Source of the DNA: a virus
Lineage: Duplodnaviria > Heunggongvirae > Uroviricota > Caudoviricetes
IMG/VR virus record: IMGVR_UViG_2728369393_000005
Strand: one strand, 5' to 3'
Length of the DNA stretch: 39,238 bases
This document shows, in pieces, positions 2,269-20,475 of this stretch (positions within the stretch are counted from its first letter, which is position 1; each line of letters opens with the position of its first letter). A model generated the notes under the pieces. The model was not told where the DNA came from. It saw nothing but the letters and a program-made list of their open reading frames with translations, and did not search any database. The position numbers were made by a program, and so were the translations under genes.

Positions 2269-2320
2269 ATCTCATAACCGCCGCTAACTATATACGGTTA
2301 GCGGCAATTAGGGTTGAACA

Positions 2321-3238: not shown

Positions 3239-3274
3239 CAGACGGTAAATCTTTAAATTCCATCGTCAGCCTCA

Positions 3275-3520
3275 TCAGTCAGTGTTTCTGGCTAACCAGC
3301 AACGCGCGCCAGATTCGGTTTTAAACGTTTTGCTTTTGGTATATGTCATCGCGGTGAACGTACCGCCCTGGTTGGGGAACACGCCGTACACCAGAGATTC
3401 GTTGTTGCCAAGATCGATAGTATCCATGTTGACCTCATTTCCCCTTAACGCCGGGGTAGCGGAACTGTTTGCTGAGAACACCGTGCGGTGTCTTGATGGA
3501 TCGTAATTTAGTTTTCTCAT
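3275..3520 (-). CDS. Hypothetical early leftward-operon protein (81 aa)
   Basis: ORF on the same strand as the exo/xis/int operon; start codon embedded in one of the operator-like ATGAGAAAACT motifs; no recognisable domain. Confidence 0.5.
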   Translation of the reverse strand: MRKLNYDPSRHRTVFSANSSATPALRGNEVNMDTIDLGNNESLVYGVFPNQGGTFTAMTYTKSKTFKTESGARCWLARNTD

Positions 3521-3557
3521 GAATATTGGTCAAGTGCTTTTGATGAGAAAACTCAAT
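3503..3557. promoter_or_regulatory. Operator-like inverted repeat (OL-like) downstream of the repressor gene
   Basis: ATTTAGTTTTCTCAT (3506..3520) and ATGAGAAAACTCAAT (3543..3557) form 14/15-bp inverted arms separated by 22 bp; same core GAGAAAACT recurs at 4010..4018 (minus) and 4079..4087. Confidence 0.4.
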
Positions 3558-3618
3558 ATTTAATGCAAAATAAAGCCAATACATTGAAATGTAAGGCTTT
3601 AAAATTTGTGAAGGGGGG

Positions 3619-4026
3619 TTATTGATGTTTGTTACGTTTGCGAGCTTCTAGTAGCTCGGTGAATAGGCGATTAAAATTCTCAACGCGGGCACGGAGTTCG
3701 CTGATTTGTGCTTGCTGCTCTGATTTTGGAAGTGCGCGATACAATCGCAACATCTCCAACTCATCTTCCGATAAGTCTAAGGCGCTGTTGAGTGCAACTG
3801 GTGGATCTGGTGTTTTATCCTCGTCACCAAACAGTATCCAAGTTGGTGAACATTGCAATACCTCAGCCAGGCGATGCAAATTTTGCCCGCGCGGGGCTGT
3901 ATGGTCGCTTTCCCATAGTGAAATTGATGAGCCAGATACGCCAGCAGCTTTGCTTAAATCGTTTTGACTTAAACCAACCTGTTTGCGTCTTTCTCTAATT
4001 CGTTGACCTAAAGTTTTCTCGTTCAT
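3619..4026 (-). CDS. XRE-family HTH repressor (135 aa, no S24 peptidase domain)
   Basis: N-terminal LGQRIRERRKQVGLSQNDLSKAAGVSGSSISLWE is a classic Cro/CI-type helix-turn-helix; divergent from the cro-like gene. Confidence 0.8.
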   Translation of the reverse strand: MNEKTLGQRIRERRKQVGLSQNDLSKAAGVSGSSISLWESDHTAPRGQNLHRLAEVLQCSPTWILFGDEDKTPDPPVALNSALDLSEDELEMLRLYRALPKSEQQAQISELRARVENFNRLFTELLEARKRNKHQ

Positions 4027-4048
4027 ATTTAGATATCTTAATAACCCT

Positions 4049-4091
4049 TGACTTGAGATTCCTTGAGTGATTACTATTGAGAAAACTCAAC
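4049..4091 (+). promoter_or_regulatory. Rightward promoter/operator (pR/OR-like): -35 TTGACT, 17-bp spacer, -10 TACTAT, TTGAG half-sites
   Basis: TTGACT at 4049..4054 and TACTAT at 4072..4077; TTGAG at 4053, 4063 and 4077 (about 10-14 bp apart); TTGAGAAAACTCAA at 4077..4090 has palindromic arms. Confidence 0.45.
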
Positions 4092-4103
4092 TTTGGAGGG
4101 GTG

Positions 4104-4331
4104 ATGTTTAAATCAGACGTAATTAATTTTTATGGGACGAAAGCCAAAGTAGCGAAAGCTGCTGGTGTTGATCCATCTGCTGTTTCTCAATGGGGGGAAC
4201 TGGTTCCTGAAGGTCGCGCGATGCGCCTGCAAGAGGCATCCGGCGGGGAACTTCAGTACGACCCCAAAGTTTATGACGAATATCGTAAGGCAAAGCGGGC
4301 GGGGCGGTTGAACAATGAAAATCACCCCTGA
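4104..4331 (+). CDS. Cro-like HTH regulator (75 aa from ATG 4104; ORF track starts at TTG 4077)
   Basis: GGAGG Shine-Dalgarno at 4095..4099 before ATG 4104; KAKVAKAAGVDPSAVSQW is HTH-like; divergent from the repressor. Confidence 0.65.
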   Translation: MFKSDVINFYGTKAKVAKAAGVDPSAVSQWGELVPEGRAMRLQEASGGELQYDPKVYDEYRKAKRAGRLNNENHP

Positions 4332-4866
4332 ACAGGTTTGTGAGGCTCTGGATGCCTGGGTATGCCGACCAGGAATGACACAGGAGCAGGCGACGATATT
4401 AATCACGGAAGCATTCTGGGCTCTGAAAGAACGCCCGAACATCGATGTTCAACGCGTCACGTTTAATGATGGCGAGGTTGATCAACGGGCGCTGTGCGTT
4501 AACCGGGTGAAGATATTCGAACGCTGGAAAGCTATCGACACCAGGGATAAGCGGAAAAAATTCACGGCGCTGATTCCGGCAATTATGGAGGCTATCCGAA
4601 TTAGTGATTTCAGGCTGTATCGTGAGATCAGTGATGGAAAAAGCATTACGTACATGATCGCCGGATTAAACAAAGAATATGGCGATGTGGTGGAGTCCGG
4701 GCTGCTTTTTGCGGATCCATCTGTTGTGGAACGTGAGACTGACGTGCTTATAGAAAAAGCTATTGCTTTCAAGCATGCGTATCGTCAGCAATATCAATAT
4801 TACTTTGCAGATAAACAAATGTCTGCCAGGGGTTCGTATGAGTATCGATGCACTACGATGGGCTAA
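4315..4866 (+). CDS. Hypothetical early protein in the cII position (183 aa; possibly YdaT/CII-like regulator)
   Basis: ORF between cro-like and replication genes; start overlaps the cro-like stop; no motif I can name with confidence. Confidence 0.45.
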   Translation: MKITPEQVCEALDAWVCRPGMTQEQATILITEAFWALKERPNIDVQRVTFNDGEVDQRALCVNRVKIFERWKAIDTRDKRKKFTALIPAIMEAIRISDFRLYREISDGKSITYMIAGLNKEYGDVVESGLLFADPSVVERETDVLIEKAIAFKHAYRQQYQYYFADKQMSARGSYEYRCTTMG

Positions 4867-5878
4867 AAAGGTGAAAACCGGCAGTTCATCCAGTAAGTCT
4901 GTATTGACCTGGCTTGCTGATATGTGCGGTGCCGATTTGTGTGCATACCCGTCTGTATCTGCACTGGCAGAAGTAACGGAACTGAACAAAAAGACTGTGC
5001 AGGACAGCTTACGACACCTGATGGAGATTGGGTTAATTGTTGATACCGGTGAGAGAAAAGGCAGAACAAAGCAAATTGTGGTGTACCGACTTATCGGTGT
5101 AGAAGAAAGTGTTGCCGAGCCTGAATACACCCAAAAACGGGAGTCTTTAAAGGTGGGTAAAATCGGTGCTGTTAATAAAAACAGTACCGAAAATGGTTAT
5201 GTTTCAGCACAAAACAGACCCAAAAACGGAACTCTTAGCTGCATGGAAAATAACCAAAGACACCCAAATTTTCCATCAAAGACACCCAAAAACGGATCAC
5301 GGAACCCAAAGGAACCCAAAGAGCTAAACCCCACACATAACGCACGCGAGAGTGCTCCGACCAGTGAGCAGAAAGTTTTGTCGTTACAGGCTGCACCTCC
5401 TGTATTCCTGGATGGCCTGAGCGAACCCATCGAAAAATTTCCGATGACCGATAGCTGGTATCCGTCACGGGATTTTCGACGACGGGCTGCGTTGTGGGGG
5501 ATGGCTTTGCCGGAGACAGAATTCACACCTGCTGAACTTGCCGCCTTCCGGGACTACTGGGCTGCTGAGGGGAAAGTGTTTACGCAGATTCAGTGGGAGC
5601 AGAAATTCGCCCGTCACGTAAATCACGTCAGGGCGCAGGTTAAACCAGTCAGCAAGGGGGTAAACCATGCAGCAGCACCAGGTGACACCGCATCACGGGC
5701 AGTTCAGGAAATTCGGGCAGCACGTGAGCAGTGGGAACGTGAAAACGGATTTATCAGCGACGGAAACGGCCTGGAAGCTGTGGGAACTCATGGGGGAGGT
5801 TTATTCGAACCGCTGGACCCAGAAGAACGGGGCCGCACCTTCGAAGCTCTGGATTGCACAGATTGGTGCGATGACTGA
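4838..5878 (+). CDS. Replication initiation protein, O-like, with N-terminal winged helix (3' end uncertain)
   Basis: MSIDALRWAKKV ... LAEVTELNKKTVQDSLRHLMEIGLIVDTG resembles phage replication-initiator N-termini; the last ~70 codons overlap the P-like gene and may be frameshift read-through after the G5 run at 5656..5660. Confidence 0.55.
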   Translation: MSIDALRWAKKVKTGSSSSKSVLTWLADMCGADLCAYPSVSALAEVTELNKKTVQDSLRHLMEIGLIVDTGERKGRTKQIVVYRLIGVEESVAEPEYTQKRESLKVGKIGAVNKNSTENGYVSAQNRPKNGTLSCMENNQRHPNFPSKTPKNGSRNPKEPKELNPTHNARESAPTSEQKVLSLQAAPPVFLDGLSEPIEKFPMTDSWYPSRDFRRRAALWGMALPETEFTPAELAAFRDYWAAEGKVFTQIQWEQKFARHVNHVRAQVKPVSKGVNHAAAPGDTASRAVQEIRAAREQWERENGFISDGNGLEAVGTHGGGLFEPLDPEERGRTFEALDCTDWCDD

Positions 5879-6332
5879 GCAGCAAATCCGACAGGTCTGC
5901 CGCCAGTGCATGGACCGCTGCCGGGCGGGTGAAACATGGCCTCCGGACCTGGCTGAGTTTGTGGCGCTGATTTCGGAAAGCGGAGCCAATCCATTCGGTC
6001 TGACGGTGGATGCCGTGATGGAGGAGTACCGTCGCTGGCGCAACGAGTCCTGGCGATACGACGGGAGCGATAAATACCCGTGGTCTCAGCCTGTGCTGTA
6101 TCACATTTGCCTCGAGATGCGTTCAAAGGGGATTGAGCGGCAGATGACCGAAGGGGAGTTAAAACGGCTTGCAGAACGGCAGCTGACGAAATGGGCAAAG
6201 CATGTTAGTAACGGCCTGAGTGTTCCGCCAGTCCGGCGACAACTGGCGGCACCCAAACGCCCGTCGGGGCCAACGCCAATTGAGTTGCTGAAACAGGAAT
6301 ATGAACGCCGGAAAGCGGCTGGGCTTGTCTGA
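5667..6332 (+). CDS. Replication protein P-like (helicase loader)
   Basis: Central and C-terminal similarity to lambda P as recalled (WIAQIGAMTEQQIRQV versus WVLAFRENGITTMEQV; YPW ... RQL region); follows the O-like gene. Confidence 0.6.
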   Translation: MQQHQVTPHHGQFRKFGQHVSSGNVKTDLSATETAWKLWELMGEVYSNRWTQKNGAAPSKLWIAQIGAMTEQQIRQVCRQCMDRCRAGETWPPDLAEFVALISESGANPFGLTVDAVMEEYRRWRNESWRYDGSDKYPWSQPVLYHICLEMRSKGIERQMTEGELKRLAERQLTKWAKHVSNGLSVPPVRRQLAAPKRPSGPTPIELLKQEYERRKAAGLV

Positions 6333-6364
6333 GTTGAGAAGTAATTTTTACCGGGAGGAAATTT

Positions 6365-6639
6365 ATGGAGACTGTTTTTGACGCACTGAAAGCAATGGGA
6401 AAAGCCACATCCATAGAACTTGCTGCGCGCGTGAAGAAGTGCTGAACGAACTATGGGAACTGAAAAAGGCTGGTTTTGTTGATAAAAGCGCGTACACCTG
6501 GCGTGTGGCTGATAACAACGTTCAGCAGGAACAGCCAGCGCAGGCAGAACTGCCGGAAGAAACCACCACAATGAGTGAAGTTATGCAGCGCATACTGGCA
6601 TTTTATCAGGGAAATGTTCGATATTTTAGACGTTACTAG
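6365..6639 (+). pseudogene. Small winged-helix-like protein split by a frameshift near 6431..6445
   Basis: ATG 6365 frame ([26 protein letters not shown]-stop) switches to the ORF 6439..6639 frame ([26 protein letters not shown]); the two halves read as one protein with a single-base indel. Confidence 0.4.
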
Positions 6640-7082
6640 ATTAAAGAGCATTAGTTCAGATGTGAATTGACATTGTGTGGCACAGGGTTGGGCTAGCGTG
6701 GGGGTTTGCTTTGTGTAAGAAACGGATGCTCTGCAAATTACTACTAATGCTTAATGTTAGTCTGATCTGCTCCCCGATGATTAATTAATACACCGCTATG
6801 TTAGTAATGTCTGTAGATCGCTGTGTGTTGCATCCATCGGTTGACCCCACAGTCCAAACCAGACTGTCAGCTTTGATTCGATTCTATCTACTCAACCTGT
6901 CAGGTAATGTCTGAGCTAATACACAGAGTACGGCTATCGCGAACTTTAAGCTAGGTATCTGATACGCACCGTTCACTTGGTTGTACTTCTTGCACTGACT
7001 AGCTATCGTGCGCAGTTATTTATAGGTAATCTCCAGTGTATAATTTTCCAACTTATGGGAGATTGTAAAACAGGAGGAATAT

Positions 7083-7925
7083 ATGAGGAAAAAATCGTTT
7101 GGACGTTGCCCGTTTGATTTCGACGAAGATGTAAAAAAAATAGCCGCGATAAATAAATATATCCATGCGAAATTTGAGAGGCATAAAAATAAAATAGATA
7201 ACCTAAAGGGGGTGGAACAAAAATTGATGGTTTTACATTACTTTAATGTACTGAATGAACTTAGTAATCAGGCTATATTTTCTTTGAGTACCGGAGCCTT
7301 TTCAGCATCGGAAGTATTAACTAGAGTTATAATGGAACAGGCTGCCAATCAATTTTATATAGCAATTGATGATGGAAAAAATGCACAAGCATTACTCAAG
7401 GGTAGTAAGAAATTAGTTCATAGTAATGGGAAACGGTGGCTGGAGTGTTTAAAATCCAAAGAAATGACTAATCCAGCAGCAGATGAAAGGATTCGTATCG
7501 GAAAAGAGCTAACTGATATGTTTAATAGATTGTGGCCAAATACACCTGAATATCCTGGAACCAAAAAGCTTTTCGAAGTAATTGGCTGGGAAACACACTA
7601 TCATGCCTATTACGTCCCTCTTTGTGATTCAATACATACATTCTCTGATGATATGGCAAATATAGTATCTCTATATAATGCAATCCAAAGCGATAAAACT
7701 ACTGCTATCGAACTCACTCTTGCAGTTAAACAAGAAAATAAACGGCTGGCAATTTATAATGTCGTAATTGCTATTGGCCTGCGGTGTGAGGCCTTAGTAA
7801 ATGTATTTAACTCTTTAGGTTATCGAGATATTATAACTGAAATGGCGCCAACAATAGATGCAGTCAACCAGATTATAATTCGATATGATGATTTCGAACA
7901 TTCCAGAATTTTTTATTGTCAATAA
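7083..7925 (+). CDS. Hypothetical 280-aa protein with its own promoter and strong RBS; function unknown
   Basis: AGGAGG at 7071..7076 before ATG 7083; TATAAT at 7043..7048; long AT-rich ORF; C-terminal RYDDFEH fits a loose Rx4-6H pattern, speculative. Confidence 0.6.
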   Translation: MRKKSFGRCPFDFDEDVKKIAAINKYIHAKFERHKNKIDNLKGVEQKLMVLHYFNVLNELSNQAIFSLSTGAFSASEVLTRVIMEQAANQFYIAIDDGKNAQALLKGSKKLVHSNGKRWLECLKSKEMTNPAADERIRIGKELTDMFNRLWPNTPEYPGTKKLFEVIGWETHYHAYYVPLCDSIHTFSDDMANIVSLYNAIQSDKTTAIELTLAVKQENKRLAIYNVVIAIGLRCEALVNVFNSLGYRDIITEMAPTIDAVNQIIIRYDDFEHSRIFYCQ

Positions 7926-7999
7926 TTAATTGGCAGAATTCGTACATGCACAACAACTAGTTATAGTTGACCTATTTCGCTCTTGAGAGACAACCATAC

Positions 8000-8551
8000 T
8001 CAAATCTTCCACATTGCAGGAGATTTGAGTATGAATACGTCACCGAGGAACAAAGACAGTATCATAGGCCCAAAAAGACCACTTCAGATATCTCATATCT
8101 GGGGGCTCCAAATCCGGCTTGAACTGGAAGGTAAAACGCGTGATTTAGCTCGGTTTCAAGCAGAGCTACGGTGCTGCAACTGAAAAACTGGCAGTCCTAT
8201 CCAATTTGAGATAACCAAAGGGACAAGAGAAGCTGTTTCTGCATTGATAAAGCTTGGCAATTTACGCAGTAAAGACTACTTGTTCCGATCTCGGGTCGGT
8301 ACTAACCAACACATATCAATCCTGCAATATAACCGAATCTTTCATAGGAGGGAGAAAAGCTTGGTCTCGAAGATTCGCTTTACAGCACACATTCCATGAG
8401 AAGAACAAAACCTTGCCTTGTCTGCAAGAAAACTAAGAATCTCCGGGTGATCCAACTTCCGTTGGGCCATAAGAAAACGGAAAGCACAGTTCGTTATCTG
8501 GGTATAGAAGTTGATGATGCATTAGAGATCTCTGAATCGATCGAAGTCTAA
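8000..8551 (+). pseudogene. Decayed tyrosine recombinase gene (fragments in three frames)
   Basis: Fragments KDYLFRSRVGTNQHIS, ALQHTFHEK and LRVIQLPLGHKKTESTVRYLGIEV-stop (ends 8551) resemble recombinase box II and the C-terminal LGH-x8-Y catalytic tyrosine region, but lie in different frames. Confidence 0.45.
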
Positions 8552-8963
8552 AGCTGTCAGGGCTGCAGCAGCAGCCCTGTGCCAAGAGCGTACCAATATA
8601 TGTCTCAAAAAATTGGGCACAGGTCAATATCAATACCAACAACTCTGATTGTGCTCATGTGATTTACTCCTGTAGAAAACGCAGACAGTAAAAATATTTC
8701 ACTGGCTGCTTCAGACAGGGCGTCCATCATATCATTACATAACAATAGCGGGGCACGATATCTAGACATGCAGCAACGATGGACATAGAATGAGTACAAT
8801 CAAAAGCATGTTTAACTACTTTAATTTAAAAATCTTAGAATCTTAGGTGTAGAGTTCAATACTTAGTTACATACCCTTTTGAAAGCATCACAAATCATAA
8901 CTATGAGCCTGTTAAAGGCATAGGTATTCTTAATTAAGAGCATTTTAATGAGAGAAAAATAAA

Positions 8964-10337
8964 ATGAAAAGACTATATTATACCCATCATGATAGTCGAA
9001 CCTTAAAACTTGCTATAGAAGGTGATGTTTCTGATAATGCGAATATTTTTACAGTAATTGTAGGTAAAAATGGCGTTGGAAAAAGCAGATTGTTATCTCA
9101 GATTGCTAAAGACTGTATTCAAGATGTTCATTTCTTGAAAACTTTTAATCCATTATTTGACAGAGAAATAACACCAAAGTTAATTGCCGTATCTACCAGC
9201 CCATTCGATAAATTCCCTCCAGGGCGTAGGTCATTAAATCACCAAAGGAAAGAAAATAATTATCGCTATGTGGGTATGCGTGGAGAAGGCCCCTTCGGCG
9301 TATCAAATGCCGTATCCCTTTTATCTTCAGCAGCGAGAGGTTGGCTAGAGAAACTTGCTTATTCAGAAAATCCTGCAAATTTACTCGATGTTTTTCATTC
9401 TATTGATTTTGAGCCCCATATAGAGTTTGTATTTAAACCAACTTACAACGGACCGGACACTCCTGACTATAACTTCATTGGTGTATATTCAGATGAGATA
9501 TTAACGGAAGTTAAGGAGTTATATTTAAAATACAATATAAAAATTGACAGGAAGAATATTGAGAGTCTCTTAAAGTTAAACTCCGAATCACGTCATGATA
9601 TTTACGAAGCACTGGTTGAAATTAATCGATTTGAACCTGAACGTAGGGCTGTAACCTTGTCAGTCGATTTTACCAATGGTGAAACATTGGTTGGCTCGAC
9701 TTATGCGAATAATTATTTTTCTAGATCAATTCTTAAACTTATGAACGCTGGCTTCATGAGATTGATGGATATGCGACTCATAAAAAAAAGCTATGGTCCC
9801 ATGTCACTTAAACGTGCGAGCTCGGGAGAACAATGTTTATTAGTGATGTTGCTTGGAATTGCAGGGCATATAACTGATGGTTCTATAATACTAATTGATG
9901 AACCGGAAATAAGCTTGCATCCTCGATGGCAGGAAGAGTTTATCATTATGTTAACAAAAGCATTTTTAACTTACTCAGGTTGTCAATTCATAATTGCAAC
10001 TCATTCACCACAAATAATATCCAATTTGCCGAATAAAGGTTGTTATATAACATCTTTGTCGAAAAGTTATCTTTATAAAGCAAAATACTTTAGCAACCGG
10101 TCTGCAGACTATCAACTTGCGGAACTATTTGATGCCCCTGGCATTATGAATGAATACATTGCCAGATTAGCTTTCAATTTACTTTCAAAAGTTAAGACTG
10201 CTAAGTTAGTAACAGATGATAATTGGCGTGAATTAAAACAACTCCAGCTTCTCCTTGAAAACGTTAATAGTAATGACCCTATTAATGAACTCGTAAATTC
10301 CGTATCTCAGGTGTGTGAAATTTATGCCAAAAATTAA
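8964..10337 (+). CDS. ABC-type (AAA_21/SMC-like) ATPase, 457 aa; PtuA-like candidate
   Basis: Walker A VGKNGVGKSRLL, signature-like SSGEQ, Walker B IILIDEPEISLHP, H-loop IIATHSP; stop overlaps the start of the downstream HNH gene. Confidence 0.75.
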   Translation: MKRLYYTHHDSRTLKLAIEGDVSDNANIFTVIVGKNGVGKSRLLSQIAKDCIQDVHFLKTFNPLFDREITPKLIAVSTSPFDKFPPGRRSLNHQRKENNYRYVGMRGEGPFGVSNAVSLLSSAARGWLEKLAYSENPANLLDVFHSIDFEPHIEFVFKPTYNGPDTPDYNFIGVYSDEILTEVKELYLKYNIKIDRKNIESLLKLNSESRHDIYEALVEINRFEPERRAVTLSVDFTNGETLVGSTYANNYFSRSILKLMNAGFMRLMDMRLIKKSYGPMSLKRASSGEQCLLVMLLGIAGHITDGSIILIDEPEISLHPRWQEEFIIMLTKAFLTYSGCQFIIATHSPQIISNLPNKGCYITSLSKSYLYKAKYFSNRSADYQLAELFDAPGIMNEYIARLAFNLLSKVKTAKLVTDDNWRELKQLQLLLENVNSNDPINELVNSVSQVCEIYAKN

Positions 10338-10959
10338 AAATCCAATTAGATTCAGCGCAGAGTCATTAGATATTATTGAGAAAAAATTGTCTTCTCCAGA
10401 TTTTAAGCATACCAACTGGGGAGATGATGATTTGCAAGTTCTCCGTGCAGAAATTAGAAATCATTACAGAGAAGAACAAAAGCTAGAATGTGTATATTGT
10501 CATGAGCCTATTGGGGTAAGAGCTGCACAAGCTGCTCCTATAGAGCATATTGTGCCAAAATCTCAATATCTATGTTTTATTTTTGAACCTAAGAATCTAT
10601 GTGTAGTATGTCCTGACTGCAATGAATTCAAAGGTAAAAATGAAGTGTTATTTGAACCCGTAATAAATGGGGGGCGGCGCAAAAACTATCCAACTGCATC
10701 TGCATCATTTCGCATCGTTCATCCACATATAGATGATTATGAGATGCATATTATAAAAGCAAATCGTGTTTATGTGGACAAAACACCTAAAGGGCACTAT
10801 ACCATTGGAATATGTAAACTAAATAGATTTTTTCATTATTTTGGGATGTGTGATGAATTTGTTAATGATGCAAAAATTGCTGAGGCAAATGAAAATTTTT
10901 TCAAAAAAGGTAGTATTACTACTAATGAATTATTGGATGATGACATTCATTTGATTTAA
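10324..10959 (+). CDS. HNH endonuclease, about 212 aa; PtuB-like candidate
   Basis: CVYCHEP ... EHIVPKS ... CPDCNEFKG gives the CxxC-H ... H ... CxxC HNH zinc-finger pattern; ATG 10324 overlaps the ATPase 3' end by 14 nt (GTG 10315 by 23 nt). Confidence 0.75.
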   Translation: MPKIKNPIRFSAESLDIIEKKLSSPDFKHTNWGDDDLQVLRAEIRNHYREEQKLECVYCHEPIGVRAAQAAPIEHIVPKSQYLCFIFEPKNLCVVCPDCNEFKGKNEVLFEPVINGGRRKNYPTASASFRIVHPHIDDYEMHIIKANRVYVDKTPKGHYTIGICKLNRFFHYFGMCDEFVNDAKIAEANENFFKKGSITTNELLDDDIHLI

Positions 10960-11272
10960 CTATGAATTATTATATTGTAAAGTAATCAGGTAAGATATGT
11001 TAGACAGTGAGACTATTGCCTTACAGAATTCATTATTCTTATGGATCGCCTTTCTGACTGATTTCATATTGGCGGGGTAACGGGAGTTAAGTAGAATGGC
11101 TGCGGGTGCTTGAGGCTATCTGTCTCAGGCATGAACACCAAAGGCAGATAGAGAAAAGCCCCAGTTAACATTACGCGTCCTGCAAGACGCTTAACATTAA
11201 TCTGAGGCCAATTTCATGCTAGACACATGTAGGTTAGCCTCTTACGTGCCGGAAGGCAAGGAGAAGCAGGCT

Positions 11273-11428
11273 ATGAAGCAGCAAAAGGCGATGTTAATCG
11301 CCCTGATCGTCATCTGTTTAACCGTCATAGTGACGACACTGGTAACGAGGAAAGACCTCTGCGAGGTACGAATCCGAACCGGCCAGACGGAGGTCGCTGT
11401 CTTCACAGCTTACGAACCTGAGGAGTAA
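11273..11428 (+). CDS. hokD: Hok/Gef-family type I toxin (51 aa)
   Basis: MKQQKAMLIALIVICLTVIVTTLVTRKDLCEVRIRTGQTEVAVFTAYEPEE matches Hok-family (HokD/RelF-like) sequence from memory; hairpin and intrinsic terminator follow. Confidence 0.65.
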   Translation: MKQQKAMLIALIVICLTVIVTTLVTRKDLCEVRIRTGQTEVAVFTAYEPEE

Positions 11429-11498
11429 GAGACCCGGCGAGGGAGAAATCCCTCGCCACCTCTGATGTGGCAGGCATCCTCAACGCACCCGCACTTAA

Positions 11499-11517
11499 CC
11501 CGCTTCGGCGGGTTTTT
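11499..11517 (+). terminator. Intrinsic terminator downstream of hok (CCCGC-TTCG-GCGGG + T-run)
   Basis: Stem-loop followed by TTTTTGTT read directly. Confidence 0.4.
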
Positions 11518-11785
11518 GTTTTTATTTTCAACGCGTTTGAAGTTCTGGACGGCGCCGGAATAGAATCAAAAATACTTAAGTAGCGCGCAGGGATAAGAGG
11601 GATGGTCCCTTAAAGGGGAGAGCTAATTATCCGGAAGGATTCTGATGATGAACATCGAAGAACTGCGTAAAATTTTTTGTGAAGATGGCCTCTATGCTGT
11701 GTGCGTTGAAAATGGAAATCTTGTTAGTCATTACCGCATTATGTGTTTGCGAAAGGTAAGCGTCAACGGAGCACCGTATTGACGC

Positions 11786-13401
11786 TTATTTATTGGTGAG
11801 TACTACGTTCCATGGCAGGAGTTCATCAACTCGGTTGGAAGGCCATTCCGGCAGTACGCTCAGGATATGGCGCAGATACGCTTCCGGATCGATACCGTTC
11901 AGACGGCAGGTGCCGATCAGCCCGTACAACAGTGCTCCACGCTCGCCGCCGTGATCGCTGCCAAAGAACATAAACTTTTTCTTTCCGAGACAGACTGCAC
12001 GAAGCGCTCTTTCCGCAGCATTATTATCCGCCTCCGCCAGACCGTCATCACTGTAATAACAGAGGGCATCCCACTGATTCAGTACATAGCTGAACGCTTC
12101 GCCCAGTCTGGATTTTTTCGACAGCGTACCATTCTTCTCCACCATCCATTCATGCAGCGACGTCAGTAACACTTTGCTTCGCTGCTGCCTGACGGCAAGA
12201 CGCTCTGACTCCGGTAATCCCCGTATTTCATCCTCGATGGCGTACAGTTCACTGATTCGCTTCAGGGCTTCTTCTGCCGTCGCACTTTTGCTGCTGATGT
12301 ATACATCGTGGATTTTTCGCCGGGCATGGGCCCAGCACGCAACTTCTGTCAGTGCACCACCTTCACGTTCTGCACTGAACAACCTGTCGTAACCTGTGAA
12401 CGCATCCGCCTGCAGGATACCCCGGAAGGGGCGGAGGTGTTGCTCCGGGTGTTTCCCCTGCCGGTTCGGCGAGTACGCGAACCAGACCGCTGGAGGAGAT
12501 GACGAACCCACATTGCGATCATCCCGGACATACGTCCAGATACGCCCTGTTTTCGCCTTTTTCTGACCCGGTGCCAGTACCTTTACCGGTGTGTCATCAG
12601 TGTGAACCTTGCGGGTGTTCATTACATAACGGTACAGGGCATCATTCACCGGTGTCATTAACTGGCAGCACGCGTCAACCCAGTTGGAGAGTAAGGCCCG
12701 GCTCAGTTCGACACCCTGGCGGGCAAAGATTTCACTCTGACGATACAGTGGCAGATGTTCGCAGTATTTTCCCGTTAACACGCGGGCAAGTAATCCGGGG
12801 CCCCCGCGATACCACGCTCTATCGGGCGGGACGGCGCCGGTGCTTCAACAATACAGTCACATTTTGTACAGGCTTTTTTTACCCGTTCTGTGCGGATCAC
12901 TTTCAGGGCACTGCTCACCAGTTCCAGCTGTTCAGCGCTGACTTCCCCCAGATAATCCAGCTCACCGCCACACTCCGGGCAACAGCTTTCTTCTGGCTCC
13001 AGGCGGTGTATTTCTCGGGGAAGGTGTGCCGGTAACGGACGACGATGGCGCGACTGTCGCAACTGGCGGGGAACCTGAGGATCGTCTTCCCGCCCACTGT
13101 AACGATCGCTGTCCTGTTCACGTTGTTTCAGCAGAGCCTCAGCCAGTTCAACTTCACGACGCAGTTTTTCAGAACGGGTACCGAACAGCATCCGGCGCAG
13201 TTTTTCTATCTGAGCCCGCAGATGTTCTATTTCCCGTTCATCTTCTTCGATCTTTTCTTCGGCACGTGTCAGTGCAGAGCGCAGGAAGGCTTCCGTCTCT
13301 TCAACCAGACTCAGTTGCTGGTCTTTCTGACGGAGGGCTTCAGCCTGCTCAGAGAGCAATCTTTCCAGCTCTGCGATGCGAATGAGGTATTTCTGACTCA
13401 T
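11786..13401 (-). pseudogene. IS66 transposase TnpC, split by a frameshift at a G/C homopolymer (12797..12805)
   Basis: N-terminal fragment 12775..13401 (Cys-rich zinc-finger CCPECG ... CTKCDC) and C-terminal fragment 11786..12781 (GKYCEHLPLYRQ ...) together equal a full-length TnpC. Confidence 0.75.
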
Positions 13402-13431
13402 GACCGTTTTTATAATGCGGTCAGGAGTTTT

Positions 13432-13782
13432 TTACAACATTGTCAGTGAGTTACGGCTGGATGTTTTTGGCTGACGCCAGTCCAGCTTATCGAGGAGCAT
13501 TGCCAGTTGCGAGCGGGTAATGGATACCTTGCCGTCACGTACCGCAGGCCAGATAAACTGGCCTTCCTCCAGGCGTTTGGTGAACAGGCACAGACCATCA
13601 GCATCAGCCCAAAGAATTTTGACGGTGTCACCCCGTCGGCCACGGAAGATAAACAGGTGACCGGAGAAGGGATTATCATTCAGCACATGTTGTACCTGTT
13701 CTCCCAGTCCGTTGAAGGATTTACGCATATCGGTAACGCCGGCAACGAGCCAGATACGGGTACCTGATGGGAGTGAGATCAT
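13432..13782 (-). CDS. IS66 family TnpB (Orf2)
   Basis: 116-aa ORF (MISLPSGTRIWLVAGVTDMRKSFNGL ...) typical of IS66 Orf2, upstream of tnpC. Confidence 0.8.
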   Translation of the reverse strand: MISLPSGTRIWLVAGVTDMRKSFNGLGEQVQHVLNDNPFSGHLFIFRGRRGDTVKILWADADGLCLFTKRLEEGQFIWPAVRDGKVSITRSQLAMLLDKLDWRQPKTSSRNSLTML

Positions 13783-14204
13783 CTTCCCCTCCCGGTCAGT
13801 TCACGGATCAACACCGTGAGCAGCTCTGGCGATGGATTTTCCAGCGTCATGTTACCGTGACGGAATTCCACCTTGCAGGAACTGGCACTGACTCTGGTCT
13901 GAGTGGAAGTGGATAAAGACGGCGCAATGGCCGCCACAGGTTCTTTCTGCTCATCCGGCGTTATTTCTACAGGTAATAATTCAACGCCAGTGTCAGAAGA
14001 GGTCGTTACCGGAAGACGCCGCGAAACACGCCCTTCGTTCTGCCAGAGCCTGAGCCATTTGAAAATAACATTATCATTGACGCCATTTTCACGTGCAATC
14101 TGTGCAACACAAGCTCCAGGTTGTGATGCCAGTTCCACCATACGAAGTTTGAATTCATTCGAATAGTTTTTACGAGGTTCTTTTCGCCAGTCCTGTAATT
14201 CCAT
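13779..14204 (-). CDS. IS66 family TnpA (Orf1, HTH)
   Basis: 141-aa ORF overlapping tnpB by 4 nt; first gene of the IS66 operon. Confidence 0.75.
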   Translation of the reverse strand: MELQDWRKEPRKNYSNEFKLRMVELASQPGACVAQIARENGVNDNVIFKWLRLWQNEGRVSRRLPVTTSSDTGVELLPVEITPDEQKEPVAAIAPSLSTSTQTRVSASSCKVEFRHGNMTLENPSPELLTVLIRELTGRGR

Positions 14205-14257
14205 ACTTAGATGTCCGTCTATATCAGATGGGCGTCTAAGTTACCAATTCTCGTCTG

Positions 14258-16183
14258 ATGGCTACATACGGCGGTCAGTTTACGCTTACGGTGATCACCG
14301 GGATTACGTCAACGCCTTCTCCGGATCGGGATGGTGACATCCTGGAGCCGGAGGGGGCGGAGTTTGGCTGTGCGATCCCGTTTCTCTGGCAGCATGACCA
14401 TTCCCGCCCGGTGGGCCAGTGTACGGTACGCCGGGTCAGTGAAGGTCTGGAAATCACGGCAACACTGGTGAAGCCCGTACCGGATATGCCGTCGCAACTG
14501 GCTGCCCGGCTGGATGAGGTCTGGGCGGCCATTAAGACCGGGCTGGTCAGGGGGCTGTCCGTGGGCTTCCGTCCCCATGAATACACCTTTCTGGACGGAG
14601 GCGGACTGCATTTTCTGCGCTGGGAACTGATGGAGGTGTCTGCCGTCACCGTGCCCGCGAATGCGGAATGCACCATCCGGACCATTAAATCTTACGACCG
14701 CCCGTTTTCTGCCGCGTCCGGCAACCGGAAACCGGTGGTGAAAATCGCATCTTCTGCCGTCGCTGCGGCACAGTCAACAACCGTTTTTCATAAGGAAAAG
14801 ACAGTAATGAATACTGGTGAACAGATTAAAAGTTTTGAAAACAAGCGTGCTGCACTGGCAGCCTCTCTTGAGGAGATCATGACCAAAGCCGCAGAGGAAG
14901 GCCGCACGCTGGATGTGGAGGAGGAAGAGCATTACGACAACACCGCGGCGGAAATCCGCCAGGTGGATGCGCACCTGAAGCGTCTGCGTGAACTGGAGGC
15001 CGGTAAGGCCGCCACGGCACAGCCGGTGAAACAGGCCGGTAACGGTGACGTTGTGACGGTGAGTTCAGTGACGGTGAGTTCAGCGCCGGTGATCCGTGTG
15101 GAGCAGAAACTGGATAAGGGGATTGGCTTTGCCCGCTTTGCCAAATCGCTGGCTGCGGCTAAAGGTGTCCGCTCTGAGGCCCTGGAAGTGGCCCGTCGTC
15201 AGTATCCGGATGACAGCCGTCTGCACCATGTCCTGAAATCGGCGGTGGGGGCGGGAACCACCACGGATCCACAGTGGGCAGGCAGCCTGTCTGAATACCA
15301 GGAATATGCGCAGGACTTTATTGACTATCTGCGTCCGCAGACCATTATCGGGCGATTTGGTCAGGGCGGGATCCCTGCACTTCGTCAGGTGCCGTTCAAT
15401 ATCCGCGTGCATGCCCAGGTGTCCGGCGGTGCTGCCAGCTGGGTGGGGGAGGGTAAGGCAAAACCGCTGACGAAGTTTGATTTTGAATCCATCACCTTCA
15501 GTCATGCGAAGGTGTCGGCCATTGCGGTACTGACGGAAGAACTGATCCGTTTTTCCAGTCCGGCTGCTGATGCGCTGGTCCGTAATGCGCTGGCAGAAGC
15601 GGTGGTGGCGCGTCTGGACACAGACTTTGTGGACCCGAAAAAAGCGGCGGTGGCGGATGTCTCCCCGGCGTCCATCACCCATGATGTGAAGGGCACGGCA
15701 TCAACCGGTAACCCGGATGCGGATGCCGAGGCCGCGTTTGGCCAGTTTGTGACGGCAAATCTGCAGCCCACTGGTGCGGTCTGGCTGATGTCCAGCACGA
15801 ATGCCCTGGCGCTGTCCATGCGTAAAAATGCGCTGGGTCAGAAGGAATATCCGGACATGACCCTGCTGGGCGGGACCTTTCAGGGGCTTCCGGTGATTGT
15901 CTCCCAGTATGTGGGTGACCAGCTGGTACTGGTGAATGCACCGGATATTTATCTGGCGGATGACGGCGGTGTGGCAGTGGATATGTCCCGTGAAGCGTCA
16001 CTGGAAATGCAGTCTGAGCCGGGCGGCGACAGCACCACACCGTCGCCGGTGGAGCTGGTTTCCATGTTCCAGACCGGCAGCGTGGCCATCCGTGCGGAGC
16101 GCTGGATCAACTGGCGTCGTCGCCGTACTGCGGCGGTGGCGGTGATCACCGGTGTGAACTACGGCAGTGCGTCCGGCGGCTGA
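14258..16183 (+). CDS. HK97-family prohead protease fused to major capsid protein (641 aa)
   Basis: N-terminal DRDGDIL ... LSVGFRP ... LMEVSAVTVPAN protease motifs, then a capsid-like C-terminal domain; the first ~11 codons lie inside the IS66 terminal repeat, so the true start may be GTG 14291. Confidence 0.75.
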   Translation: MATYGGQFTLTVITGITSTPSPDRDGDILEPEGAEFGCAIPFLWQHDHSRPVGQCTVRRVSEGLEITATLVKPVPDMPSQLAARLDEVWAAIKTGLVRGLSVGFRPHEYTFLDGGGLHFLRWELMEVSAVTVPANAECTIRTIKSYDRPFSAASGNRKPVVKIASSAVAAAQSTTVFHKEKTVMNTGEQIKSFENKRAALAASLEEIMTKAAEEGRTLDVEEEEHYDNTAAEIRQVDAHLKRLRELEAGKAATAQPVKQAGNGDVVTVSSVTVSSAPVIRVEQKLDKGIGFARFAKSLAAAKGVRSEALEVARRQYPDDSRLHHVLKSAVGAGTTTDPQWAGSLSEYQEYAQDFIDYLRPQTIIGRFGQGGIPALRQVPFNIRVHAQVSGGAASWVGEGKAKPLTKFDFESITFSHAKVSAIAVLTEELIRFSSPAADALVRNALAEAVVARLDTDFVDPKKAAVADVSPASITHDVKGTASTGNPDADAEAAFGQFVTANLQPTGAVWLMSSTNALALSMRKNALGQKEYPDMTLLGGTFQGLPVIVSQYVGDQLVLVNAPDIYLADDGGVAVDMSREASLEMQSEPGGDSTTPSPVELVSMFQTGSVAIRAERWINWRRRRTAAVAVITGVNYGSASGG

Positions 16184-16227: not shown

Positions 16228-16449
16228 ATGGCAAAAATCCGATATCTGCAGGGTACACATGATGCCCGGCCCGGGGATATCCGGGATGTCGCACAGCCGT
16301 GTGCGGAGGTGCTGGTTCGCCTGGGAAAGGCGGAGTACATCACGGTGCGACGTCCGGCAGGTCAGAAAAAGAAACGTGATGCGGAGCATGGCGAATGTGG
16401 AACCTTTTACGGCGAACCCGAAAAAACCAGAAATCAGGACGTGACGTAA
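16228..16449 (+). CDS. Hypothetical small protein (73 aa), doubtful
   Basis: ORF in the gap between capsid and portal genes; overlaps the portal start region; no motif. Confidence 0.25.
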   Translation: MAKIRYLQGTHDARPGDIRDVAQPCAEVLVRLGKAEYITVRRPAGQKKKRDAEHGECGTFYGEPEKTRNQDVT

Positions 16450-17758
16450 GAGAGGCGGGCTGGACCAGCCTGTTTCAGGCGGTGGCTGAGCCCTTTGCCG
16501 GCGCCTGGCAGCAGGGTGTGAAAGCCGATCCGGAAAGTGTCCTCTCCTTTCATGCGGTGTTTTCTTGCATTTCGCTGATATCCCAGGATATCGCCAAAAT
16601 GCGGCTGCGCCTGATGCAGACGGATACACAGGGGATCCGCCGTGAAAAACGGCAGGGGGATATTGCCCGTCTCTGTCGTCGTCTCAATGCACAGCAGAAT
16701 CGTATCCAGTTTTTTGAACTGTGGCTGAACGCCAAACTGCGTCACGGCAATACGGTGGTGCTGAAAATCCGTAACTCCCGGGGCAGATCAAAGAACTGCG
16801 TATTCTGGACTGGAGCCGGGTTGAACCTCTGGTGGCGGATGACGGCGAGGTGTTCTATCGCATCACGCCGGACCGGAACTGCGGGATCACGGAGGCGGTG
16901 ACGGTGCCTGCCCGGGAAGTGATCCACGACCGGTTTAACTGTTTTTTTCATCCGCTTGTGGGGCTGCCGCCGGTGTATGCCGCCGGGCTGGCGGCCACGC
17001 AGGGGCATCATATTCAGGAAAATTCGACGTCTTTTTTCAGAAATGGCGGCAGGCCGTCCGGGGTGATTGAGATCCCCGGCAGTATTACGGAAGAAAATGC
17101 GAAAAAACTGAAGAGCAACTGGGACAGCGGGTATACCGGCGAAAATGCGGGGAAAACGGCCATTCTGAGCAACGGAGCAAAATACAACCCCACGACGTTT
17201 TCACCGGTGGATGCGCAGACGGTGGAACAACTGAAGATGACCGCTGAAATTGTCTGTTCGGTGTTCCGTGTCCCGGCCTACAAGATTGGCGTTGGCCAGC
17301 CACCTTCCAGTGACAACGTGGAGGCGCTGGAGCAGCAGTATTATTCCCAGTGCCTGCAGACGCTGATTGAGTCCATTGAACTGTTACTGGATGAGGCGCT
17401 GGAAACGGGGGAAAACGAGAGTACGGAGTTTGACGTCACCACGCTGCTGAGAATGGACAGCGAACGTCGCATGAAAACGCTGGGTGAATCGGTGAAAAAT
17501 ACGCTTCTCACGCCCAATGAGGCCCGTAAACGTGAGAACCTGCCGCCCCTTGCCGGCGGTGATGCACTGTATCTTCAGCAGCAGAACTACAGTCTGGAGG
17601 CGCTGTCCCGTCGTGATGCCCGTGAGGATCCGTTCGCGTCTTCCGGGAAAACGTCGTCAGGCACACGCCAGGAGGGCGCGTCTGACGGTAATAAGGCCAT
17701 AAGCGAAACAGAGCGTGATGCGGTGAAGGCGATGTTCAGGGGGATACTGCGAAAATGA
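16395..17758 (+). CDS. HK97-family portal protein, interrupted by a frameshift near 16775..16790 (CCCGGGG run)
   Basis: Fragments 16395..16901 and 16832..17758 join into one portal-like protein; GKTAILSNGAKY ... VDAQTVEQLKMTAEIVCSVFRVPAYKIG is a portal signature. Confidence 0.7.
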
Positions 17759-18978
17759 CAGAGCGTGAACTGTCCATTATCCGTGCGCTGGGTGAAGAAT
17801 TCTCCACGGTGCTGGCGGATTTACAGCGCACATTTGAGGGGAAGATGGCCTCGCAGGCACAAGCGTTTGAAGAGAAACTGACTTCCCTGTCGGCGGTATT
17901 ACAGAAGCATGTGACGGTGGATGAGGTGCGTCCGGTTCTGCAGGCGATGGTGGATGACGCTGTGGGGGCCATTCCGGTACCGCGTGATGGTCGTGATTAT
18001 GATCCGGATGTACTGCAGCAGGCGGTGAATGATGCGGTTGCGAATATTCCGGTACCGGCGGACGGCAAAAGTATTACCCCGATGATGTGCGTCCGATGCT
18101 TGAACAGATGGTGAAGGAGGCGGTAAGCCATATTCCTGTTCCGCGTGATGGTCGTGATTACGATCCGGAAGTACTGAAGCAGGCGGTGAATGATGCGGTT
18201 GCGAATATTCCGGTACCGGCGGACGGCAAAAGTATTACCCCCGATGATGTGCGTCCGATGCTTGAGCAGATGGTGAAAGAGGCGGTAAGCCATATTCCTG
18301 TTCCGCGTGATGGTCGTGATTACGATCCGGAAGTACTGCAGAAGGCGGTGAATGATGCGGTCGCGAATATTCCGGTACCGGCGGACGGCAAAAGTATTAC
18401 CCCCCGATGATGTGCGTCCGATGCTTGAACAGATGGTGAAAGAGGCGGTAAGCCATATTCCTGTTCCGCGTGATGGTCGTGACTATGATCCCGATGTTCT
18501 GCAGAAGGCTGTTCTGGAGGCGGTGAGAGCCCTGCCGGCTCCGCAGGACGGGCGTGATGCCACGGCACTGGAAATAATCCCCGCCATTGACGATCAAAAA
18601 TCCTTTCCCCGGGGCACGTATGCCACACACCAGGGCGGACTCTGGCGGGCGTATGAAAAAACGCACGGGATGCGGGGATGGGAATGCCTGGTTGACGGGG
18701 TGGCCGATATTGACGTCAGCATGACCGGCGAACGGTCGTTCACTGTGGTGGTCCGGCAGAGCAGTGGCCAGCGTACGGAAAAAACATTTTCCCTGCCGGT
18801 GATGCTCTACCGCGGTGTGTTCAGAGCCGGTGAAACCTACCACCCCGGTGATACGGTGACGTGGGGGGGCTCGCTGTGGCACTGCAACAGTATGACCGGT
18901 GATAAACCCGGAGAAGCTCATTCATCAGGCTGGACCCTGGCTGCCAAACGTGGACGGGATGCAGGAGGCGGAAAATGA
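17755..18978 (+). CDS. Head-module protein with tandem 54-aa repeats, broken by two frameshifts at C-runs
   Basis: Three ORF fragments (17755..18114, 18087..18410, 18352..18978) share the repeat VRPMLEQMVKEAVSHIPVPRDGRDYDPEVL ... ANIPVPADGKSITP; C-run is C4, C5, C6 in successive repeats. Confidence 0.55.
17920..18567 (+). repeat. Tandem coding repeats, unit about 162 bp, 3 full copies plus a divergent partial copy
   Basis: Units 17920..18080 (161 bp), 18081..18242 (162 bp), 18243..18405 (163 bp), then a degenerate copy; length differences are confined to a poly-C tract. Confidence 0.8.
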
Positions 18979-19301
18979 CGGCATTACTGACACTGGAAGA
19001 GATCAAGGCACATCTGCGTGTCGACCATGACGCGGATGATGACATGCTGATGGACAAGGTTCGTCAGGCTACCGCCGTGCTGCTGGCCTACATTCAGGGC
19101 AGCCGGGATAAGGTGATTCGTGAGGACGGTGAACTGATCCCGGGCGAGGCATTAACCCGGATGAAGGGGGCTGCCATGCGACTGACCGGGATGCTGTACC
19201 GGAATCCGGATCTTGCGGAGCGGGAAGAACTGATTCAGGGGGAGCTGCCGTTTTCTGTTTCCGTGCTGATTTACGATTTGCGTTGTCCGACGGTGTTATG
19301 A
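18975..19301 (+). CDS. Head-tail connector protein (gp6-like)
   Basis: 108 aa starting MTALLTLEEIKAHLRVDHDADDDMLMDKV, characteristic of the gp6 family; position after the portal. Confidence 0.65.
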   Translation: MTALLTLEEIKAHLRVDHDADDDMLMDKVRQATAVLLAYIQGSRDKVIREDGELIPGEALTRMKGAAMRLTGMLYRNPDLAEREELIQGELPFSVSVLIYDLRCPTVL

Positions 19302-19310
19302 GGAGGGGGA

Positions 19311-19661
19311 ATGGCAATATCTGCAGGTCGTCTGACACAGATGATAAGTGTTCTGAACCCGGTGTTAACCCGTAATGCTGCCGGAGAAATGACGGAAGAA
19401 TGGGTGTCATGCGGGAAAATTCATGCGGATATCCGTGGCAGGAGCAGCCGGGAGCGGATGCAGTCCGGTGCGGCAATGGCGCAGGCGGAAATCCGCATCT
19501 GGGTGCGCGGTCAGTCCGGCCGGGAAATCACGGCAGCGTCACGACTTCATGTGCTGAGTGGTCCATGGCGTGACCGGATCCTGAACGTTGTCGGGCTGCC
19601 CGTGCCGGATGCGACCGGCGGGCGTCTGGAAATTCTCTGTCGGCTGGGAGGGGAAAAATGA
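19311..19661 (+). CDS. Head closure / head-tail adaptor protein
   Basis: 116-aa ORF in the conserved position after gp6-like; start overlaps the next gene. Confidence 0.55.
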   Translation: MAISAGRLTQMISVLNPVLTRNAAGEMTEEWVSCGKIHADIRGRSSRERMQSGAAMAQAEIRIWVRGQSGREITAASRLHVLSGPWRDRILNVVGLPVPDATGGRLEILCRLGGEK

Positions 19662-20446: not shown

Positions 20447-20475
20447 CTTTTTCTTTTTTTCTACAAAACCCATAC

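Follow-up and report, generated by a model that had tools for sequence, protein, structure and literature searches.

An ISEc23 copy joining two half-prophages in Escherichia coli O145:H25, very probably one joint of a terminus-centred inversion

Introduction

Large prophage-bounded rearrangements have been described in Escherichia coli O157:H7, where recombination takes place between extended tracts of homologous prophage sequence (PMC8743559). Repeats of at least 5 kb with at least 98% identity were considered in that study, and IS elements were deliberately excluded (Fitzgerald et al. 2021, PMC8743559). The locus described here resembles the O157:H7 cases (PMC8743559) in that a megabase inversion, centred on the terminus and bounded by lambdoid prophages, would have split the prophages and changed the replichore size little. 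It differs from them (PMC8743559) in the serotype, O145:H25, and in the substrate, which is a 2.5-kb ISEc23 element inside each prophage. Homology at the joint is confined to the IS; the adjoining rem and capsid sequences are unrelated to each other, and prophage homology of at least 5 kb is absent.

The inversions of the E. coli long-term evolution experiment offer a second parallel, namely recombination between inverted IS copies and an IS devoid of its own direct target duplications. Raeside and colleagues reportedly found in 2014 that IS1 and IS150 were involved, in a laboratory B strain. Unlike those inversions, the present one concerns ISEc23 in a pathogen, with both copies in prophages and two chimeric prophage remnants as the outcome. 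The event is of an ordinary kind known in pathogenic E. coli and raises no new biological question; it would add a non-O157 example of terminus-centred inter-prophage inversion, mediated by an IS instead of phage homology.

Composition of the window

The window is the whole stretch of 39,238 nucleotides that was analysed. It is about 99.97% identical to the genome of the EHEC O145:H25 strain CFSAN004176; the only differences from this reference record are in the length of a few homopolymers and at a few SNPs, 3 of them in 34 kb outside the IS. As read from the sequence, the window consists of two half-prophages fused at the IS and not of a single prophage. The first half, the left arm of a prophage at serU, spans 982-11755; the second, the right arm of the potB/potC prophage, spans 14290-39238.

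The P-like gene (Pfam Phage_lambda_P) ends at 6332. Downstream, the region 6333-14290 contains a DUF1627 remnant, a DUF5677 gene, a decayed tyrosine recombinase pseudogene, the PtuA/PtuB genes of Septu, sok/hokD, a rem fragment and ISEc23, and nothing else. The preliminary description had likewise recognised only an islet, a hok gene and an IS66 element between the P-like gene and the head genes, and the annotation, Pfam, PADLOC, Rfam and PHROGs agree with it. Its observation that Q, lysis and terminase genes are unrecognisable holds throughout the window. Searches with tblastn using Q, holin, YdfR, Rz, HNH, TerS, TerL, RusA, DUF968, TerB and SASA esterase gave no match across the window; its PGAP annotation contains none of these genes either, and no Q, lysis or terminase gene was found among the small ORFs searched against PHROGs. 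The window lacks a complete lambdoid late region in cis, in which Q, holin/endolysin/Rz and TerS/TerL would separate the replication genes from the head genes.

The serU prophage arm and its cargo

The tRNA-Ser(CGA) gene serU occupies 892..981 on the plus strand (ARAGORN), and its 3′ 62 nt (920-981) form the attL core of the serU prophage. A second copy of this core, 96.8% identical, lies beside yodB at the other end of the inversion (L006 29288-29349). The early arm of the prophage (1009..6332; PGAP annotation of the matching record and Pfam) encodes the integrase (1034-2059, minus strand), a cI-like repressor (3619-4026, minus strand), DUF4224, a truncated exonuclease, cro, YdaT, an O-like DnaT-domain protein and P. 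Relatives at serU have about 2.9 kb more in this arm, comprising intact exo, dicB and ydfC. The frameshift in the integrase is weak evidence of a defect and was discarded as such: it changes no more than about 9 residues at the C-terminus, and the putative H...Y catalytic motif appears to be kept.

The cargo islet (6365..10959, plus strand; PADLOC, Pfam and PHROGs) comprises the DUF1627 remnant, the DUF5677 protein (7083-7925, plus strand; Pfam) and the decayed tyrosine recombinase (about 8031-8551). Next to them are the plus-strand genes for the PtuA ATPase (8964-10337; PADLOC 1.2e-165, full length; Pfam AAA_21/AAA_15) and the PtuB HNH nuclease (10315-10959; PADLOC 1.1e-83; Pfam HNH). The two genes are adjacent, overlap at 10315-10337 and constitute a predicted Septu system. 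GC-content falls to 0.33-0.40 in the islet, and the same islet is found in E2348/69 PP2 and in the serU prophage of AMSHJX01. A hok/sok type I toxin-antitoxin locus (11104..11428, plus strand; Rfam and Pfam) follows, in which the sok RNA region (11104-11278; Rfam RF01794, 117 bits against a threshold of 59) overlaps the Hok-family toxin ORF hokD (11273-11428; Pfam HOK_GEF, 5e-24). The arm ends with a 5′ fragment of rem (11645..11755, plus strand), the small ORF that had already been described as truncated by the IS66 element; it retains codons 1-37 of 83. The 3′ end of the fragment is the octamer TGCGAAAG (11748-11755), evidently one copy of the target duplication from an ISEc23 insertion into rem.

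In the E2348/69 potB/potC prophage and the serU prophage of AMSHJX01, the identity to 6333-11755 is at least 99.8% across the early region, the hok-rem block and the Septu/DUF5677 islet. In both of these prophages rem is followed by DUF968, RusA, Q, tRNAs, holin, endolysin, Rz and terminase. They are collinear and un-inverted, with the late genes in cis, and have lambda-type heads, whereas the window has an HK97-like protease-capsid fusion. FORC 064, E2348/69 PP2 and UTME-3 were rejected as templates for the size of a deletion, each being decayed or mosaic, and were used just for gene order and for the intact capsid 5′ end.

The ISEc23 element

ISEc23, the putative recombination joint, lies at 11756..14289 on the minus strand. 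It has the three genes of the IS66 family, all named by PGAP: tnpA (13779-14204), tnpB (13432-13782) and tnpC (11786-13401). In the window, tnpC is interrupted by two additional C residues (12801-12802). The same genes in a matching contig carry the Pfam domains HTH_Tnp_1, TnpB_IS66 and DDE_Tnp_IS66. The terminal inverted repeats of 24 nt (11756-11779 and 14266-14289) start with GTAAGCG, as in IS66-family elements. The absence of a target-site duplication, noted in the preliminary description, is real, as the flanks TGCGAAAG and GGTGATCA differ. Each of these is an 8-bp target duplication divided between this IS and a second copy.

The potB/potC prophage arm

The protease-major capsid fusion gene (14290..16183, plus strand; Pfam Peptidase_S78 and Phage_capsid) lacks its first 59 nt and starts with the octamer GGTGATCA (14290-14297), evidently a copy of the other target duplication. 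As annotated, the ORF of 641 aa takes an ATG at 14258 from within the right end of the IS; its first 32 nt (11 codons) are IS sequence, and no Shine-Dalgarno site precedes the ATG. The phrog_617 alignment begins only at residue 12 of this ORF, at profile position 27. Alignment with an intact homologue demonstrates that the native 5′ 59 nt (20 codons), with a GTG start and an AGGAGG site, are absent from the window. The IS therefore does not abut the start of the capsid gene, as had been thought: the ATG is inside the IS and the native 5′ end is missing.

The rest of the right arm (16228..39238, plus strand; PGAP annotation) encodes the portal, a head-tail connector, tail genes, the tape measure, gpJ, sodC (minus strand), lom and a tail fibre, and ends with genes for T3SS effectors (NleG/DUF1076 family, espW) and a bfpT-regulated chaperone gene. 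The gene potB lies directly past the window end. A frameshifted portal was rejected as proof of defectiveness, since this gene carries the PGAP flag in several further genomes too. The portal region of the matching contig comprises a 454-aa Phage_portal protein and a separate 407-aa ORF, and the extra portal breaks in the window fall at homopolymer differences from the reference record.

The reciprocal joint

A second ISEc23 is located in the same chromosome at record positions 784437-786968, in the opposite orientation. In the window the IS stands between TGCGAAAG and GGTGATCA, in that order, and in the partner between GGTGATCA and TGCGAAAG, an exact reciprocal. Two synthetic junction queries, one of the IS left end, TGCGAAAG and the rem 3′ part, the other of the terL 3′ end, the capsid 5′ end, GGTGATCA and the IS right end, were matched over their full length in a single piece in one of 5,426 genomes, that of the window's own strain (784069-784786 and 786619-787317, opposite strand). 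The rem 5′ fragment, rejoined with the 3′ part (L006 22890 onward), encodes an 83-aa Rem identical to the intact FORC 064 protein. The capsid 5′ end with GGTGATCA (L006 20283-20349) restores an intact gene of 650 aa with a GTG start and an AGGAGG site.

The order at the partner locus is potC, int, Q, holin, endolysin interrupted by IS600, Rz, terS, terL, the capsid 5′ part, ISEc23, the rem 3′ part and partial DUF968, and then tail-fibre remnants, partial nleG, nleL, nleC, attR of serU and yodB. The left end of the potB/potC prophage, with int beside potC, is at 0.813 Mb of the record. The window has mtfA-serU on its left and potB-potA-pepT on its right; the partner locus lies between potC-potD and yodB-zinT-msrQP. 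Undoing the inversion restores both genes and the serU/yodB and potB/potC neighbourhoods, and an uninterrupted potC-prophage-potB arrangement exists in E2348/69. In AMSHJX01, a close serU relative, rem and Q are followed by terminase and head genes of the lambda type, and not by an HK97-like capsid gene. The two IS copies lie at 482 and 528 kb from the dif site (256334-256361), so the endpoints in the serU and potB/potC prophages are roughly symmetric about it. On these junctions, the window very probably holds one of the two joints of a terminus-centred inversion of about 1.01 Mb that occurred via IS copies in two prophages.

The preliminary description had suggested that an IS-associated deletion took away the late control and packaging genes. 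In this model, a single serU prophage would have lost Q, lysis and terminase genes, and the start of its capsid gene with them, by adjacent deletion at the IS66 element. Such a deletion would leave what the window contains, an IS without target duplication between two truncated genes and no late regulatory, lysis or packaging genes. However, the missing ends of rem (3′) and of the capsid gene (5′) persist, along with a full Q-lysis-terminase block, in the genome at the second, inverted IS copy, with the 8-bp duplications exchanged, and the window leads at its right end to potB, not to yodB, the normal neighbour of serU. These findings refute the deletion, which is left with next to no probability. 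A search of the rest of the genome for displaced terminase genes, proposed in the same description, locates the Q, lysis and terminase genes that belong to the head-tail module about 1.01 Mb away, adjoining potC (0.78-0.80 Mb). The block is itself damaged, with IS600 in the endolysin gene and an internal stop in terL.

An assembly artefact, in which the two 2.5-kb repeats were joined to the wrong flanks and both inversion and chimera exist in the assembly only, is very unlikely. Repeats are classic sites of mis-joining, and the homopolymer differences between window and record are typical of early long-read assemblies. Nevertheless, 2.5 kb is short relative to PacBio reads, and the mis-join would be needed reciprocally at both copies. 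The same joint is present in the window, the RefSeq record and the public assembly GCA_003015365.1 (rem-IS-capsid), although this last assembly is 99.96% identical and may not represent an independent strain. The genome paper describes a comparison of the contigs with a BamHI optical map to detect mis-assemblies and inversions (PMC5567499).

The two ISEc23 copies are 99.3% identical, with 15 SNPs in 2532 positions (0.6%). This bears on a one-step origin, in which a single ISEc23 in one prophage transposed replicatively and intramolecularly into the other, generating the second inverted copy, the duplication and the inversion at once. The same exchanged flanks are predicted, so that flanks alone do not separate this route from IS-IS recombination, and it accounts for the failure to find an ancestor with two IS. 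On the other hand, copies from one replicative event are expected to be identical at the outset, and 15 differences in 2532 positions are far above the 3 SNPs in 34 kb between window and record, which argues for two older independent insertions. To our knowledge, cointegrate-type replicative transposition is not established for IS66-family elements. We regard the one-step origin as improbable. Mapping of the crossover by the SNPs between the copies (2 in 1-676, none in 677-1969 and 13 in 1970-2468) was rejected as uninterpretable without the parental sequences.

Proposed course of events and consequences

In the favoured scheme of recombination between two resident IS copies, two lambdoid prophages would each have gained ISEc23 with its own 8-bp target duplication, the serU prophage in rem (TGCGAAAG) and the potB/potC prophage in codons 20-22 of the protease-capsid gene (GGTGATCA). 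Homologous recombination between these oppositely oriented, pre-existing copies, presumably of the RecA type, would have inverted all DNA between them. The window would then read mtfA, serU, the serU left arm from int to truncated rem, ISEc23, the potB/potC right arm from the truncated capsid gene through tail and effector genes, and potB. No un-inverted ancestor or sister with either IS in place was found among 5,426 complete E. coli genomes, so that the succession of steps is deduced from the logic of the target duplications.

The attL and attR of each prophage would now be about 1 Mb apart and inverted, which would make Int/Xis excision of either prophage impossible. The structural genes of the window would be severed from the Q-dependent late promoter and from terminase; together with the loss of excision, this would turn both elements into immobile cargo carriers. 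The earlier picture of a defective, fixed cargo carrier is thus retained insofar as the element cannot lyse, package or excise as a unit, and abandoned as to the deletion mechanism and the single prophage. With the parent prophages locked, the cargo would now be chromosomal: Septu, hok/sok, sodC, lom and the T3SS effectors NleG, EspW, NleL and NleC.

By analogy with O157:H7, in which this has been shown, the inversion might be a standing, reversible structural polymorphism with cells flipping between two states, rather than a fixed scar; we consider this unlikely. The switch could be driven by Int at the inverted att sites or by RecA at the IS pair. The Q-dependent late operon of the potB/potC prophage would now point through the IS into nleL and nleC of the serU arm, and the structural genes of the window with the NleG/EspW effectors would lie downstream of the serU prophage early operon. 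If so, flipping would re-wire effector expression to different phage regulatory circuits.

For annotation, an IS without target duplication between two truncated genes resembles a deletion when a single window is read and may equally be an inversion joint; a search for the reciprocal junction decides between the two. Prophage callers will report a plausible 38-kb "serU prophage" here that is two unrelated halves.

A true late-gene deletion is present, but in the displaced serU right arm by yodB, separate from the joint in the window. No IS66 element is annotated at its DUF968/tail-fibre junction, and all genes from DUF968 to the tail fibre have been lost from this arm.

Source and Gene Content of the Window

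The interval 6333-14290 aligns over its full length to one complete E. coli genome, that of CFSAN004176 (NZ_CP014583.1, 4,960,257-4,968,212), an EHEC of serotype O145:H25 (PMC5567499). Over its first 34.3 kb the window is 99.97% identical to this record, with three SNPs and six homopolymer-length indels; one more homopolymer difference lies in espW. The differences from RefSeq, mainly in homopolymer lengths, are located at 12801-12802, 16779, 18076, 18400, 28848 and about 37213. Two extra C residues (12801-12802) break the tnpC gene of ISEc23 in the window, and one absent G breaks the 454-aa portal gene. In the window a T8 run keeps espW open over 352 aa (36682-37740), whereas RefSeq has T7 and annotates the gene as frameshifted. 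Pseudogene calls in this region vary with the sequence version used.

After the serU gene for tRNA-Ser(CGA) (892-981) come an integrase and early lambdoid genes, the last of which, P, ends at 6332. Besides a DUF1627 remnant, the interval 6333-14290 holds an islet of low GC content (0.33-0.40), which encodes a DUF5677 protein, a decayed tyrosine recombinase and both Septu proteins at full length (PtuA, 1.2e-165; PtuB, 1.1e-83). The interval also contains sok/hokD, the first 37 codons only of rem and the IS66-family element ISEc23. The predicted Septu system (PtuA/PtuB) is complete at 8964-10959, inside the islet (6365-10959), which is housed in the truncated DUF1627 gene. The DUF5677 protein belongs to phrog_4167, a family that assigns no function. 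The islet recurs at no less than 99.8% identity in prophages whose att sites differ (potB/C in E2348/69, serU in AMSHJX01).

The integrase is annotated as frameshifted (1000-1050); its sole difference from the intact FORC 064 protein is a 13-nt alteration giving a different sequence for roughly the nine C-terminal residues. Because the AMSHJX01 serU prophage, which is otherwise near-complete, shares this feature, the change may not be inactivating. Relative to the serU relatives, the early left operon (2321-3427) has lost about 2.9 kb, comprising the N-terminal two-thirds of the exonuclease together with ydfD, dicB, ydfC and ydfB; this loss is an additional, separate step in the decay of the serU prophage left arm.

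A tblastn search of the whole window for Q, holin, Rz, TerS, TerL, RusA, DUF968 and further proteins of the late region was negative; none of these is annotated in the window by PGAP, and PHROGs found none among the small ORFs. Hence, the absence of recognisable Q, lysis and terminase genes noted in the preliminary description is real.

Borders of ISEc23 and Reciprocal Junctions

Inverted repeats of 24 nt, at 11756-11779 and 14266-14289, mark the ends of ISEc23. Its flanks, TGCGAAAG and GGTGATCA, differ, which confirms the earlier remark that the element lacks a target-site duplication. The capsid gene start formerly placed at 14258 is an ATG within the IS. Homology to the intact UTME-3 capsid homologue begins at 14290 in the alignment, the native first 59 nt (20 codons) being absent, and the phrog_617 match to the ORF begins only at residue 12.

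An IS without a duplication between two truncated genes may mark a deletion or a recombination between two IS copies. Both junctions predicted by recombination were built as queries, one consisting of the IS left end, TGCGAAAG and the remainder of rem, and the other of the terL 3′ end, the capsid 5′ end, GGTGATCA and the IS right end. In a search of all complete E. coli genomes, each query gave one full-length, one-piece match, in CFSAN004176 only (784,069-784,786 and 786,619-787,317, opposite strand). The partner ISEc23 (784,437-786,968) lies between GAACGGGTGATCA and TGCGAAAGAATGGGG, and the window copy between TTTGCGAAAG and GGTGATCACCGGG, so that the two are exact reciprocals at the base level. 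The rem fragment of the window joined to the 3′ part at the partner translates into a sequence that matches the FORC 064 Rem, an intact 83-aa protein, at every residue, and the partner capsid 5′ end joined to the window from 14298 gives an uninterrupted 650-aa ORF with a GTG start and an AGGAGG site. The IS-associated deletion proposed at first is contradicted by these reciprocal junctions, where both “missing” flanks are present.

In the window's orientation, the partner locus starts with a lambdoid early region, followed by DUF968, RusA and Q (797,564-798,253), TerB, DUF3927 and a SASA esterase, then holin, YdfR, an IS600-interrupted endolysin and Rz, then HNH, terS and terL (with an internal stop by translation), and 67 nt of the capsid 5′ end before ISEc23. 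Beyond the IS are the rem 3′ end, a hypothetical gene, a truncated DUF968 and tail-fibre remnants, nleG′, a HECT-type effector (NleL) and nleC, a 62-nt copy of the serU 3′ end and, last, yodB, zinT, msrQP, hiuH and hprRS. The terminase genes sought elsewhere in the genome are thus found here, with Q, holin and Rz. The far-left end of this prophage carries xis, IS600 and int, adjoining potC-potD, while potB-potA-pepT come right after the right end of the window; E2348/69 has the undisturbed order potC-prophage-potB. From the partner-locus order, these flanks and the E2348/69 arrangement, it follows that window 982-11755 is the left arm of the serU prophage and 14290-39238 the right arm of the potB/C prophage, and not a single prophage as originally described.

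Proposed Mechanism of the Inversion

The segment between the two ISEc23 copies is 1,009,959 bp long. The distances from dif (256,334-256,361) to the two joints are 482 kb and 528 kb, so that the terminus lies close to the midpoint of the inversion. Since each 8-bp sequence is present once at each IS copy, two ordinary ISEc23 insertions would have come first, each making its duplication, followed by an exchange between the inverted copies. Intramolecular replicative transposition, inverting the segment in a single step, predicts the same flank pattern, but it should leave identical IS copies; the two differ at 15 of 2532 positions, which is why homologous recombination between two older ISEc23 copies is favoured. 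Mis-assembly at the ISEc23 repeats is unlikely: the repeat is only 2.5 kb, and the authors of the genome compared contigs with an optical map for mis-assemblies and inversions (PMC5567499). A further argument is that the rem′-IS-capsid joint recurs in GCA_003015365.1, although at 99.96% identity this assembly may not count as a separate strain.

For O157:H7 there is ample documentation of prophage-bounded, terminus-biased megabase inversions, including their emergence during culture (PMC8743559), and recombination between IS copies was the dominant source of rearrangements in the long-term evolution experiment (PMC4173774). The present case, in serotype O145:H25, combines both features, with the exchange occurring within an IS inside each prophage, and is a fresh instance of an already known type of event. 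A term search of two O145:H25 genome papers returned no discussion of an inversion.

Probable Consequences for Both Prophages

The attL and attR of each prophage would now be about 1 Mb apart and inverted, and therefore neither prophage should be able to excise. The head and tail genes of the window appear to be cut off from Q, the late promoter, the lysis genes and the terminase. The potB/C prophage was probably dead before the inversion, because ISEc23 interrupts its capsid gene and IS600 its endolysin gene, and its terL contains a stop codon. The serU prophage seems to be a remnant in its own right. In its displaced right arm, the truncated DUF968 is joined directly to tail-fibre remnants (near 23760 of L006, the extract spanning the partner locus), a junction found in this strain only among complete genomes, whereas its close relative in AMSHJX01 has RusA, Q, tRNAs, lysis genes, a lambda-type terminase and head genes at this position. 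Split att sites, split late genes and damage to both prophages point to a defective, fixed carrier of cargo, as had been suggested.

In the inverted arrangement, the potB/C prophage has its intact Q gene and late operon directed through the IS toward nleG′, nleL and nleC, which belong to the right arm of the serU prophage and lie on the same strand (L006 9065-28684; record 778.6-798.3 kb).

Other Features of the Right Arm

A 407-aa ORF 3′ of the portal gene contains a 162-nt tandem unit (54 codons) in 3.3 copies with 95% identity (17971-18509). The homologue in UTME-3 is shorter by about 490 nt, which suggests that the number of repeats differs from phage to phage. The sodC gene for Cu/Zn superoxide dismutase (27840-28367) runs on the minus strand, opposite to the tail assembly genes and gpJ between which it lies; gpJ is followed by a lom/ail-family gene, and sodC and lom/ail are usual moron cargo in EHEC lambdoid prophages. 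In collinear prophages of three other genomes (one being Z1322HEC0009, L009 9220-11822), ISEc23 has inserted independently between terL and the capsid gene, each time in the same orientation and within about 100 nt of the capsid insertion site described here. There may be an insertion hot spot beside the terL terminator hairpin.
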